NCBI GenBank assembly: GCA_030020825.1
Contig: CP125213.1
Coordinates: 24,379 to 88,378, forward strand
Direction: 5' to 3'
DNA from: Candidatus Blochmannia vicinus (nom. nud.)
GTDB taxonomy: Bacteria > Pseudomonadota > Gammaproteobacteria > Enterobacterales > Enterobacteriaceae
DNA length: 64,000 bases
Shown one piece after another: positions 23,254 to 30,094 of this stretch. Within the stretch, counting starts at the first letter, position 1; each line of letters begins with the position of its first letter. Both the position numbers and the translations under genes were made by a program. The notes below the pieces were generated by a model. The model ran no database searches. It was not told the origin of the DNA and worked only from the letters and a program-made list of their open reading frames with translations.

Positions 23254-25644
23254 TTATCTTAAGGTGCCATGAAAACGTTTTATTAAAATTATTGAGTATT
23301 TATTAACAATATCAGAAATTTCTTCTTCTTTTAAAGTATGAGTTTTACTTTGTAAAAATAATTTAATAGTAAAACTTTTAAAACCTTTTGGTATACCTTG
23401 GCCTTTATAGACATCAGATAACTTAATTTCAACTAAGTGGTTTTTATGGGTAATTTTTCTACATTCGGTAATAACAGATTCTGCAGAAATATTTTCCGGT
23501 ACTATTATAGAAATATCTCGGTAATTTTTCGGAAATTTAGAAATGGTAGTAATTTTAGATAATGTGGATTTAGAAATCATATTCCATGACAGTTCAAATA
23601 CTAGTGTGTGTAATCGTAAATTTAGTTTCGTTTGTATAGCAGGATGAACCATGCCAATATATCCAATACATATATTGTTTAAATAAATTGCTGCGCTTTG
23701 TCCAGAATGTAGTGCGGGATGCATGAATTTTTTAAATTTTACATAATTTAATTTATTGGTTATGTTTAGTAGTGATTCTACGTCTCCTTTTATATCGTAA
23801 AAATCTACCGGATGTTCTGTTAAATCCCAATGTTCATTAAATCTAAAACCAGATCGTATTCCAGCTATCATAAAATTTTGATGCACTTTGTTTTCAGCAG
23901 TTTTTTCTGGAATAAAACACATACCGCTTTCAAATAATTTAATTTGTTTTTGTTGTCTATTTTGATTATAAATCATTGATTTGATTAATCCGGGCCATAA
24001 AGATAGTCTCATGGTAGACATGTCTGATGTGATTGGATTTTTTAAAATTAATGGAGTTTGTTGTGGGTGTAATAATTTTTGAATGTTAGCATTTACAAAA
24101 CTATATGTTATTATTTCTTGATAACCACGATCTATTAATAGGTTTTTTACCCTTGATAATGATACAGTTGATGTGTAGTTATGATTTGTTATTAATTTTG
24201 TAGGAATGAAAACATGAGGGATGTTGTTGTATCCATTAATACGTATTATTTCTGCTATTAAGTTTTCTTCTATAGAAATATCAAAACGCCAAGTGGGCGT
24301 TAGTACCTTCCAGTTATTATTTAAAAATTCAGTTTTAAAACCAAGTCGTGTTAAAATATGTGTGATTTCCTTATCCAGAATACTAAATCCAAGAATTTTT
24401 TTTAATTTAGTACGATTTAATATAATATTGCTTGGTTTCGGTAATATATCATTATTTATCATGCTTATTATTGGACCGGGATAACCACCACAGATTTTTA
24501 ATAATAATGATGTAACGCGATCTAAAGCTAATTTAGATATGCTTGGATCAACTCCTCTTGCATAACGAAAAGAAAAAAGATCATGCATATGATACAGTTT
24601 CGATTGACTCGCGATAGTAGATGGTTTAAAAAAAGCAGATTGTAACATGATGTGACAAGTGTTGGAGCAAATGCAGTATTGATTAGGAATAGTTATTCCG
24701 GCTATTGATAATGGTTTTTTAAAATCAGAGATCACTATTGTATTGGGAAATAATTTTAAATTATTGTTATTAGAGAGTTTTAATGTTTCTCCGATTTGTG
24801 AAAATCGTATGCGTATTATATTACCTTCAATTTTTTCATAATCGATAATATAAACTGGATGCCCCAGTTCTAGTAATACATAATTGGCAATATCAATCAC
24901 TACATTTACTGAACAGATTCCGCAACGACGTAGTTTTTCTGCTATCCATAAGGGCGTAGGAATAGCGATATGAATGTTTTTTAAAATTCTTCCTAAAAAT
25001 TGTGGACATGCATCAGGAACTTCAATAGCAATTGGAATAGTTTCATGGATTGTTGGTGTAATTGAATTAATTTTTATTTTTTTTAATTTTAGATGATTGA
25101 TGGCTGCTATTTCTCTAGAAATTCCGATTATATTAAGACAATCTCCTCTATTAGGAGTAATATTTATTTCAAAGATATTATCATTAAGGTGTAAATAATC
25201 ATAAAAGTCTTGCCCAATAGGTGCATCCATAGGTAATTCTATTATACCTGCTGTGTGATGAATTATTCCTAATTCTGAAAAGGTACATAGCATGCCCTCT
25301 GATTGTTGTCCTTGTATAATAGTTAGTTTAACTTTATGTCCATTTGGTAATATTGATCCCATATTAGCAACAACTGTTCGGATATTTTTACGACAATTAG
25401 CAGCATCACAAACAATATTCAATAATTTATTACTACCGTTATTTACTTTTGTTACCCATACATTATTGAAGTTTGGATGTATTTTACATTCTACAATTTC
25501 ACCAATAACTACTCCATGAAAAATATTAGAAACAGGTTTTACTTCATTAACTTTAAATCCAGCCATAGTTAATTGATTAACTAATTCGATACTACTAATA
25601 GATGGGTTCGTCCATTCTCGTATCCACATTTCACTAAATTTCAT
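23254..25644 (-). CDS. pheT: Phenylalanyl-tRNA synthetase beta subunit
   Basis: [33 protein letters not shown] and [10 protein letters not shown]. Confidence 0.97.
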
Positions 25645-25659
25645 TCTAACATCTCTACA

Positions 25660-26652
25660 TTATTGAAATTGATTAAGAAATTGTAAATCATTTTTAAAAA
25701 AAATACGCATGTCGTTGATGTTGTAAAATAACATTGTTAGTCGTTCTATTCCTATTCCGAAAGCGAATCCTGAAAACTTTTTTGTATTAATATTTGCTTG
25801 GTTTAAAATTTTAGGATGTATCATACCACATCCTAATAGTTCTAACCAATTTCCTGTCTTTTGGTCTATTACATCTATTTCTGCAGATGGTTCTGTAAAT
25901 GGAAAATAAGATGGTCTGAAACGTAAAGCAATTTTTTTTCCGAAGAAATTATATAAAAAGTCATATAATATTTTTTTTAGGTGACATAAATTAATGTTAT
26001 AATCTACCATTAAACCTTCCATTTGATGAAACATAGGTGTGTGTTTTTGATCATAATCTTTACGATATACTCGTCCAAAAGAGATAATTCGAATAGGAGG
26101 ATTTGTATTAGCCATGGCACGTATTTGAATACCAGAAGTATGTGTTCGAAGTAATCTTTTTTCATCAAACCAAAAGGTGTCGTGTTCGTCTCTGGAAGGG
26201 TGGTATATGGGGATATTTAGTGCATCAAAATTGAAATAATCATCGTCAATTTCTGGTCCGTGTGTTATGGAAAATCCTAAAGTGTTGAAAAAAAGCTTCA
26301 TACGTTTTATGGTACTTGTTATTGGATGATGTGTGCCTATATCTGATAGGCGTCCTGGTAAAGTGACATCTAGCGTATTAGTAGTTAAGGTTTTTTTTAT
26401 ATTTTTTGATTTTAAAATATTTTTTCGTTCAATGAACAATGTGTATATATCTTTTTTTGCTTGATTAATAGCTGTACCTAATTTAGGTCGTATATCTAAT
26501 GAATAATTGTTAAGAGTTTTAATTTGTTGATTTAAGTATCCTTTTTTACCTAAAAATTTAACACGTATCGATTCTAAAGTATCTATGCTATTAGATTGTA
26601 TTATAGCTGATTGTGCTTGCATAACTAGTTTATGTATAAGATCTAATGACAT
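25660..26652 (-). CDS. pheS: Phenylalanyl-tRNA synthetase alpha subunit
   Basis: [40 protein letters not shown]. Confidence 0.98.
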
Positions 26653-28162: not shown

Positions 28163-30094
28163 TTATTCCTCCATTTGATGAAAACTGTAATTGTTAATTT
28201 CACATAGTAATTTTTTTATAAATACATCAATATTATAGTTAATTAATTTTTTACCACGATAAGTACGTATGGCTACTGTATTTTGATTCATTTCTTTATT
28301 ACCACAAATCAGCATATAAGGTACACGTTGTAAAGTGTGATAGCGAATTTTAAATCCTATTTTTTCATTTCTCAAGTCTACTTTTGTTCTTATTTGTTTA
28401 TTTATTAGTTTTTTTTCTATAATAGAAATATACTCAGATTGTTGACTAGTGATATTCATCAGGACAACTTGTGTTGGGGCTAGCCATGTTGGAAATAATC
28501 CTGCATATTCTTCTGTAATTAAACCAACAAATCGCTCCATGGAACCAAGGATTGCTCTATGAATCATTACGGGAGCTACACGATTATTGTTATGATCAAT
28601 ATAACGCGCATTTAGTAAATTTGGCAAAGAAAAATCCAGTTGTATTGTACCACACTGCCAAGTTCTATCAAAAGAATCTAGTAAAATAAATTCTATTTTA
28701 GGACCATAAAATGCACCATCATTAGGTTGATATTGAAATGAGATATTATTATGCTGAAGTGCAGTAGATAGATATTGTTCTGCTGTATCCCATATTGCAT
28801 CTGTTCCAATCCGTTTTTTTGGACGAGTAGATAGTTTTACTAAAATTGTTTTAAATCCAAATATATGGTATACATCATACATCATTTTAATACAATGGTT
28901 TAATTCATCGAATATTTGTGTTTTTGTGCAAAAAATATGGCCATCATCTTGGGTAAATTCTCGTGTTCTTAATAATCCATGTAAAGATCCAGATGGTTCA
29001 TTTCTGTGACAATTTCCAAATTCAGCTACACGATAAGGTAAATCTTTATAAGATCTAATATCTTGGTTAAAAATTTGAATATGTCCTGGACAATTCATTG
29101 GTTTAACGCAATACTCATGATTTTCTGAAGAAGTAGTAAATATGTGTTCATGATAATTATCCCAATGACCTGTTTTTTTCCATAACGCATGATCAATCAT
29201 AATAGGGCTTTTAACTTCTTGGTATTTATATATTTTAAGTTGTGTTCGTATAATTTTTTTTAATTCTTGTAACAAAATCCATCCATTTTCATGCCAAAAT
29301 ACCATGCCGGAAGCTTCTTTTTGTATGTGATATAAGTGTAGTTGTTTAGCAAGGTTTCGGTGATCATGTTTTTTATTATTTTGTAATGTATTATGTTTTA
29401 ACATTTTTAATTGTTGTTTGTTGGCCCAAGTAAAACCATAAATACGTTGTAATTTTTTATTTTTACTACTTCCTCGCCAATAAGATGTAGAAATCTTGTA
29501 TAATTTAAAATTTCGACAAAAACTAATATTAGGTACATGTGGTCCAAGACACATATCTATATATTCTTCATGATAATATAATCTAATATGTTCAGTTGGA
29601 TTAATATTATCATTGAGTATGGATACTTTGTATTTTTCTTCAATGGATAAGAAAATTTCTTTGGCTTGGGTCCAATTAACGCTTTTTTTTATAATATTGT
29701 AATTTTTATTAGCAAGAAGAATCATGTGTTTTTCTAGAATTATCAGGTCGTTATTAGTAAGGTGATAATCAAGATCTATATCGTAATAAAATCTTGTATT
29801 TATTACTGAAGCAATCACCATTTTGGTTACAGGCCATAGTTGTTTTATGGCACGTCCTAATAAATGTGCGCAAGAATGGCAAATTATATTCAATCCTGTA
29901 TTGTCTTCTGAGCTGATAAATTCTAATGTTGAATCGTGATATATTAAATCTGTAATGTCAATAACTTTACCATTTACTCGTGCAGCTATGAAATTTTTAG
30001 ACAATGTTGAATCTGTATCTTTAGCAATTTGCAAAGGAGATACCGGATGATTATATTGATATTTATTTCCGTTATTTAGAATGATTACAAGCAT
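28163..30094 (-). CDS. thrS: Threonyl-tRNA synthetase
   Basis: [40 protein letters not shown] motifs. Confidence 0.98.

Follow-up and report, generated by a model that had tools for sequence, protein, structure and literature searches.

A degenerate editing site in the phenylalanyl-tRNA synthetase of Candidatus Blochmannia vicinus and its congeners, and the probable loss of proofreading by relaxed selection

Has a bacterial symbiont of ants given up the proofreading of its phenylalanyl-tRNA synthetase (PheRS), and if so, is the loss linked to its supply of tyrosine? The question is raised by pheT, the gene for the beta subunit of this enzyme, in a stretch of 64,000 nucleotides from Candidatus Blochmannia vicinus (assembly GCA_030020825.1, contig CP125213.1, positions 24,379 to 88,378), hereafter called the window, whose own numbering is used below for all features within it. 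The gene (23254..25644, minus strand, as for all features of the window) encodes a full-length protein of 796 aa according to its open reading frame, translation and profile matches. It belongs to the bacterial PheT family (TIGR00472, pheT_bact: 779 bits against a cut-off of 403, with 1–796 of 798 covered) and carries five Pfam domains above cut-off, namely tRNA_bind, B3_4, B5, CLM and FDX-ACB. An earlier note on this DNA had claimed that the PheRS proofreading site is dismantled while the editing residues of threonyl-tRNA synthetase (ThrRS) are intact, and had seen in this a matter of importance for tyrosine provisioning. Our analysis indicates that post-transfer editing by this PheRS is probably inactive or severely impaired, as a result of an ancient loss by relaxed selection, and that the editing domain would have been kept for another role.

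The editing domain B3/4 spans residues 212–386 of PheT (24487..25011; Pfam PF03483, E = 2.5e-49). According to Yadavalli & Ibba (PMC3553970), the residues involved in editing by E. coli PheRS are R244, which contacts C75 of the tRNA, H265, G318, E334, T354 and A356, and the signature motifs are QPxHxFD and GVMGGxxS/T. None of the six residues (0/6) is retained in the symbiont, which has C, Y, I, Q, D and F, respectively, in their place. Cys stands at R244 (codon TGT, 24913..24915), Tyr at H265 (TAT, 24850..24852), Ile-Pro at G318-G319 (ATT CCT, 24685..24690), which abolishes the GxxGG motif (GITIP), Gln at E334 (CAA, 24640..24642) and Asp-Leu-Phe at T354-D355-A356 (GAT CTT TTT, 24574..24582). 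The first motif reads HPVYIID and the second, G(V/I)xGGxxS/T in the relatives, reads GITIPNQY, while both are invariant in 20 free-living relatives. Judged by the six residues and the two motifs, PheT does not have the sequence of an editing-competent PheRS, and the pocket indeed appears to be dismantled, as the earlier note held. The strings it quoted (CGICS, HPVYIID, GITIP and MLQSAFF in PheT, HSCAH and DMCLGPH in ThrRS) are all found in the translations, and the two ends of its interval, 24640-24915, coincide with those of the E334 codon (24640-24642) and the R244 codon (24913-24915). Outside that interval, E. coli HTDAS has become HDLFS through T354D (24580-24582) and A356F (24574-24576), the latter introducing a bulky Phe. 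Two of the replacements, G318I and A356F, place bulkier side chains where Trp substitutions serve to block the pocket. Roy et al. reportedly found in 2004 that A356W blocks editing; a literature search on this mutant returned nothing. For position 318, the earlier statement that a bulky residue blocks editing is borne out by G318W, which lowers the editing activity of E. coli PheRS more than 70-fold (PMC4066437).

These equivalences could in principle be an artefact, either of misalignment or of random changes in an AT-rich gene that evolves fast, as PheT is merely 47–49% identical to its free-living homologs and differs from them at 27% of otherwise invariant positions. The phmmer alignment to E. 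coli PheT (PDB 3pco_B, on whose extracted sequence the residue numbering was verified) covers the whole length with E = 9e-265, is gapless for residues 1–277 and then contains a single extra residue in the query, the only indel before the later motifs, which are anchored by the conserved flanks AFF and RYxRGVDP. The segment of the second motif is devoid of any GG dipeptide with which the lost one might be realigned. MAFFT alignments, run with 30 and then with 40 relatives, return the same equivalences, and so R244C, H265Y, G318I, G319P and E334Q, for which the earlier note had proposed a formal alignment as a check, are upheld by both methods.

Chance substitution is contradicted by the position of the changes. 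Among the 20 free-living Enterobacterales, 158 of 794 PheT positions are invariant, and PheT of the window is altered at 42 of them (42/158, 27%), with 20 of 51 altered inside B3/4. The editing residues are altered in 6/6 cases, versus 38/154 for the other invariant positions (Fisher p = 3.3e-4), an enrichment that, together with the alignment, leaves an artefact practically inconceivable. When the comparison is limited to B3/4, the figures are 6/6 versus 16/47 (p = 0.003), and therefore the erosion is focused on the pocket. Decay of the B3/4 domain as a whole was also considered and was rejected in view of its ratio of nonsynonymous to synonymous substitutions (dN/dS), which matches that of the rest of PheT: 0.06–0.23 against close congeners, compared with 0.16–0.26 for the whole protein, at unsaturated dS values of 0.1–0.3 among the nearest congeners. 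The domain is under purifying selection like the rest of the protein, and therefore is retained for some other role, plausibly a structural or allosteric one.

To see how far this state extends, we compared PheT from E. coli and 40 genomes, including 16 of the genus (that of the window, G000, is a single 780,225-bp contig, 99.99% complete, and its 15 congeners measure 0.7–0.8 Mb), the 20 free-living Enterobacterales and five other Enterobacterales with reduced genomes of 0.3–2 Mb (G021, G022, G023, G036 and G037). All 16 members of the genus have 4–6 of the six editing residues replaced, and the five other reduced genomes 4–5, versus 0–1 in the free-living ones, in which the only changes are A356S or one R244E. 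The sole carrier of R244E is G040 (4.3 Mb, free-living; locus L041), with the other five editing residues intact. In G023 (~2 Mb, same family; L021, L067) PheT is altered at just 15/158 conserved positions, yet at 4/6 editing residues (R244S, H265N, G318N and T354N), and its leucyl-tRNA synthetase (LeuRS) has also lost D345, which is replaced by His. The loss of editing sites seems to come early in genome reduction.

Within the genus, whose phylogeny was taken from a maximum-likelihood (ML) tree of four proteins, the former editing positions have not settled on one state. Several lineages keep His at position 265, where others have Tyr, Asn or Arg; only the two deepest species retain Glu at 334, the remaining ones having Q, K or G there; and F, Y, H, S and L all occur at 356. 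Of the 11 pocket positions, every one differs somewhere in the genus, whereas the share is 57% among the other positions that used to be invariant (p = 0.003). Such lineage-specific, variable states are the signature of a site long released from constraint. The loss is genus-wide and recurrent in other Enterobacterales with small genomes, which points to relaxed selection rather than to a link with tyrosine supply.

Several observations nevertheless speak against a dead site. Purifying selection on B3/4 is as strong as on the rest of PheT, with a dN/dS no higher than that of the other domains; C244, P319, Q334 and D354 are fixed across ten crown species; and N254 is kept in 15/16 genomes of the genus. 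These features would also fit a pocket that has been remodelled and still works, with Cys244, Pro319, Gln334, Asp354 and an aromatic residue at 356 positioning Tyr-tRNAPhe, or editing another mischarged product. Moreover, the Ile and Phe of the symbiont are smaller than the Trp of the blocking mutants, editing is partly substrate-assisted and single E. coli substitutions often merely weaken it, so that some residual activity could persist; and the error rates discussed below rely on E. coli kinetics. We nonetheless consider a remodelled pocket unlikely. The GG motif, whose glycines open the way into the site, has lost both of them, and fixation within the crown is what shared ancestry predicts at dS of just 0.1–0.3. 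Outside the crown the same positions wander, R244 to N, Q or M, E334 to K or G, T354 to H, N or S, and A356 to S, L or Y, and no pocket position is constant in the genus. Loss of function followed by drift remains the preferred reading.

If editing is lost, the fidelity at Phe codons would depend on the alpha subunit. PheS (330 aa, 25660..26652; alignment to E. coli PheS, E = 2e-122) retains the amino-acid pocket: Q174 (26125-26127), E210 (26017-26019), F248, F250, T251 (25894-25896) and A294 (25762-25764) are identical to E. coli in 16/16 genomes of the genus and are unchanged in other small symbionts as well. This also answers the earlier suggestion that the specificity residue equivalent to A294 be checked. 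Of 123 PheS positions invariant in the free-living relatives, 20 are altered, mostly by conservative swaps of the V/I/L type. A reduced genome and a mutated editing site beside a conserved synthetic core, the two features that mark editing-defective aminoacyl-tRNA synthetases of host-restricted bacteria, are thus both found here; the host restriction itself we infer from the reduced, AT-rich genome (GC content of the window ~28%). Compensation by an editing factor acting in trans was considered as well, but none is visible: the genome contains no second gene with a B3/4 domain, no free-standing AlaX (the tRNA_SAD domain is confined to AlaRS and ThrRS) and no YbaK/ProX (the tRNA_edit domain is confined to ProRS).

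The active site of E. coli PheRS rejects para-tyrosine (p-Tyr) ~3000-fold, at the activation step, and meta-tyrosine (m-Tyr) only 35-fold (Bullwinkle et al., PMC4066437). It is because of the former that E. coli cells with a dead editing site show normal growth across ~1920 conditions, also when Phe:Tyr is ~1:9; its G318W mutants show no growth defect with excess p-Tyr, and are sensitive to m-Tyr and to oxidative stress, under which editing is needed (PMC4066437). By analogy, Phe-to-Tyr errors in the symbiont should be modest, on the order of 1/3000 multiplied by the Tyr:Phe pool ratio if E. coli kinetics apply, and protection against m-Tyr should be poor, with only ~35-fold exclusion whenever Phe is oxidized. 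The misincorporation of Tyr and m-Tyr predicted by the earlier note would accordingly need to be reweighted, p-Tyr being probably a modest source of error and m-Tyr the more plausible threat, because the PheS pocket is unchanged.

It is also conceivable that editing was lost at no cost, if selectivity has increased at the synthetic site or during transfer and Phe-to-Tyr errors are not raised. There are precedents in yeast mitochondrial PheRS and in bacterial ProRS without the editing domain (PMC11415595), and Mycoplasma mobile PheRS shows kinetic discrimination at the transfer step (PMC3553970). The specificity of the synthetic site can shift when a defunct editing domain changes (PMC3553970), which could explain the purifying selection on B3/4. 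The six pocket residues identical to E. coli throughout the genus and the mostly conservative nature of the 20 PheS changes, however, give no hint of a tightened pocket, and M. mobile, the sole case tested, is less specific rather than more. We therefore regard a cost-free loss as doubtful.

The contrast drawn by the earlier note between PheRS and ThrRS holds in the genome of the window but is incomplete, as LeuRS and ProRS are eroded too, and most congeners have lost the ThrRS editing module altogether. The thrS gene (28163..30094, full-length, 643 aa) heads the gene order thrS-infC-rpmI-rplT-pheS-pheT, in which pheT comes last, directly downstream of pheS, and infC, rpmI and rplT were assigned by the sizes and order of their open reading frames only. 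Its N2 editing domain (29420-29908) keeps H73, H77, K156, D180, C182 and H186, as had been claimed, and with these six residues and a full-length N-terminal module ThrRS of this genome has the sequence of an editing-competent enzyme; omega of the N2 domain is 0.18–0.25 within its clade. Two substitutions private to this genome, R72C (29879-29881) and R183L (29546-29548), adjoin the editing residues H73 and C182 and affect Arg residues shared by all the other full-length ThrRS sequences that were compared. They may represent a first step in the erosion of ThrRS editing.

An intact TGS and editing module is present in G000, G012, G010, G007 and G005 only, and is gone in 11/16 genomes of the genus (thrS loci of the congeners: L114, L115, L121, L122, L124-L131). 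In five congeners a remnant of the module, interrupted by 3–11 stop codons, immediately precedes a truncated thrS, and in the genomes of six others no trace of the N-terminal module was found anywhere. The truncated genes encode 411–448 aa starting near E. coli residue 235, a form equivalent to the laboratory delta-N ThrRS. At least five independent losses are needed to explain this distribution on the ML tree, and ThrRS editing does not enjoy strong protection in this genus.

Erosion of LeuRS (L044, genome C1:99068-101680, plus strand) and ProRS (L074, genome C1:132593-134326, plus strand), both encoded outside the window, takes the form of point substitutions. The CP1 editing site of LeuRS is eroded throughout the genus: TTRPDT has changed to ITRLDI (T247I, P250L, T252I) and GTGAV to GIGAA; D342N and R344Q are also seen, while D345, a universal residue, is unchanged. 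In E. coli LeuRS, editing is blocked by bulky residues at T252. The insertion (editing) domain of ProRS has H369Y genus-wide, and its GPGSLGP loop reads HPNLLGA in the genome of the window, with K279 and D350 kept. The editing motifs of IleRS (WTTTPWT; GTGxVHxAPxHGxDD), ValRS (TTRPET; GTGCVKITPAHDFND) and AlaRS (HSATH; CGGTH) are kept across the genus, AlaRS being full-length with HxxxH and CxxxH in 16/16 genomes; from the ValRS alignment the rows of G016 and G024, for which an antisense open reading frame had been picked, were left out. A few anomalies were seen on the way. IleRS of G004 (L175) matches only from residue 137, in an open frame of 815 aa, and ValRS of G014 (L203) and G005 (L204) is interrupted close to its C-terminus by 4–5 in-frame stops; frameshifts, errors of assembly or the decay of terminal domains may account for these cases. 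G021 and G037 (L164, L163), among the smallest genomes of the Enterobacterales, encode AlaRS of ~543–637 aa without the editing or C-terminal domains.

Can the loss of PheRS editing be an adaptation to tyrosine provisioning, which has been reported for Blochmannia (PMC2206011)? The symbiont encodes, outside the window, a full-length bifunctional chorismate mutase/prephenate dehydrogenase, tyrA (L133, genome C1:247345-248511, minus strand), and pheA (L134, genome C1:246145-247047, plus strand). The latter comprises prephenate dehydratase and ACT domains only, its 301-aa frame matching positions 104–378 of the 386-position P-protein model, and no chorismate mutase domain or remnant was found upstream of it, so that tyrA appears to encode the only chorismate mutase. 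With both pathways present, and with tyrosine genes of Blochmannia up-regulated in host pupae (PMC2206011), the Tyr pool of the symbiont may be high, and one could imagine that editing was discarded as futile, ATP-burning hydrolysis at high Tyr, or that Tyr-for-Phe 'statistical' proteins were useful. Yet the other reduced-genome Enterobacterales share this loss, which is also widespread among host-restricted bacteria whose ways of life are unrelated (PMC10057733), the replaced residues continue to drift without convergence, and editing sites that have nothing to do with Tyr, those of LeuRS, ProRS and ThrRS, decay in parallel. Furthermore, E. coli shows no phenotype when it loses editing, not even at high Tyr (PMC4066437), which leaves little to select on, and these data argue that a high Tyr pool alone would have little effect. 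We find an adaptive loss tied to the symbiosis, in either form, highly improbable; that editing was selected against specifically as an energetic economy of a Tyr-provisioning symbiont with an E. coli-grade PheS pocket is likewise very unlikely, and if it were true, the loss of PheRS editing would track Tyr-provisioning symbioses specifically. A link between editing loss and tyrosine provisioning is speculative, and the significance that the earlier note attached to it is not supported by the comparison across genomes. A neutral loss is plausible.

We propose the following course of events. At about the base of the genus, the canonical B3/4 post-transfer site, which hydrolyzes Tyr-tRNAPhe and m-Tyr-tRNAPhe, would have become inactive or severely impaired as purifying selection relaxed in the shelter of an intracellular niche, aided by drift and AT-biased mutation, after which the former catalytic positions could drift freely. 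The B3/4 domain may have been retained for folding or assembly of the (alpha-beta)2 enzyme, for tRNA handling, or for allosteric tuning of the synthetic site. The fidelity at Phe codons would then rest solely on the unchanged amino-acid pocket of PheS. The state of the sequence, its phylogenetic distribution and the pattern of selection are direct observations, from which we infer the loss of activity; the error rates are those expected with E. coli kinetics.

A search of the accessible literature found no report that ties Blochmannia to PheRS editing or mistranslation, and the present case adds one more genus to the documented decay of proofreading by aminoacyl-tRNA synthetases in host-restricted bacteria. 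What the analysis adds to that known decay is the detail at the level of the genus, the analysis of selection and the deletions of the ThrRS domain. The genus offers a natural series of 16 related genomes, all without the PheRS site, all with the IleRS, ValRS and AlaRS sites, and differing in the ThrRS domain, a series that ranks the proofreading steps that a minimal cell can drop. Matched species pairs from it could show what the loss of a single editing activity costs the proteome. The idea of an interplay between editing loss and tyrosine provisioning is tempered by the unchanged PheS pocket, which shifts attention from p-Tyr to m-Tyr.

The decay of PheRS editing in the symbiont is of a kind already described in host-restricted bacteria. 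Melnikov et al. (PNAS 115:E11505) reportedly surveyed 10,423 genomes in 2018 for LeuRS, IleRS, ValRS, ThrRS, AlaRS and PheRS. As cited in later reviews, that study found degenerate editing sites in most host-restricted bacteria (PMC10057733, PMC7373986, PMC11415595), a precedent that the earlier note had invoked together with that of Mycoplasma (PMC3553970). The genus is probably already within the survey data, and our sample of 41 genomes shows the same correlation with genome reduction, with 0–1/6 residues replaced in free-living species versus 4–6/6 in genomes of 2 Mb or less.

Among enzymes studied individually, the E. coli pheT(G318W) and alphaA294G/betaG318W mutants (Roy 2004; Ling 2007; Bullwinkle 2014, PMC4066437) resemble that of the symbiont in that a residue other than Gly at 318 hinders access to the site. 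Apart from this residue G318W is a wild-type enzyme, its PheS pocket included, and the pocket of the symbiont is likewise unchanged. Whereas the E. coli mutant carries one engineered Trp, the symbiont has a natural Ile and five more substitutions, including A356F, in a genus-fixed state. The monomeric mitochondrial PheRS (FARS2, or MSF1 of yeast) also works without editing of Tyr-tRNAPhe, but it lacks the beta subunit and B3/4 and has a higher specificity of the synthetic site, while the symbiont keeps its beta subunit whole and shows no visible change in specificity. The closest counterpart is M. mobile PheRS (Li et al. 2011; Yadavalli & Ibba 2013, PMC3553970), likewise a full-length (alpha-beta)2 enzyme from the reduced, AT-rich genome of a host-restricted bacterium, with a B3/4 domain that is kept and motifs that are degenerate; it does not edit after transfer, and Tyr is inserted at Phe codons with a frequency of up to 0.7% (PMC3553970). 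Its loss of editing and the Phe-to-Tyr changes in the proteome have been shown by experiment, whereas for the symbiont both are predicted from the sequence. In the M. mobile enzyme QPxHxFD retains its His, and Lys usually takes the place of R244, while that of the symbiont has lost all six residues, H265 included; on the other hand, the synthetic site of M. mobile is ~14-fold less specific than that of E. coli, whereas the PheS pocket residues of the symbiont are identical to those of E. coli.

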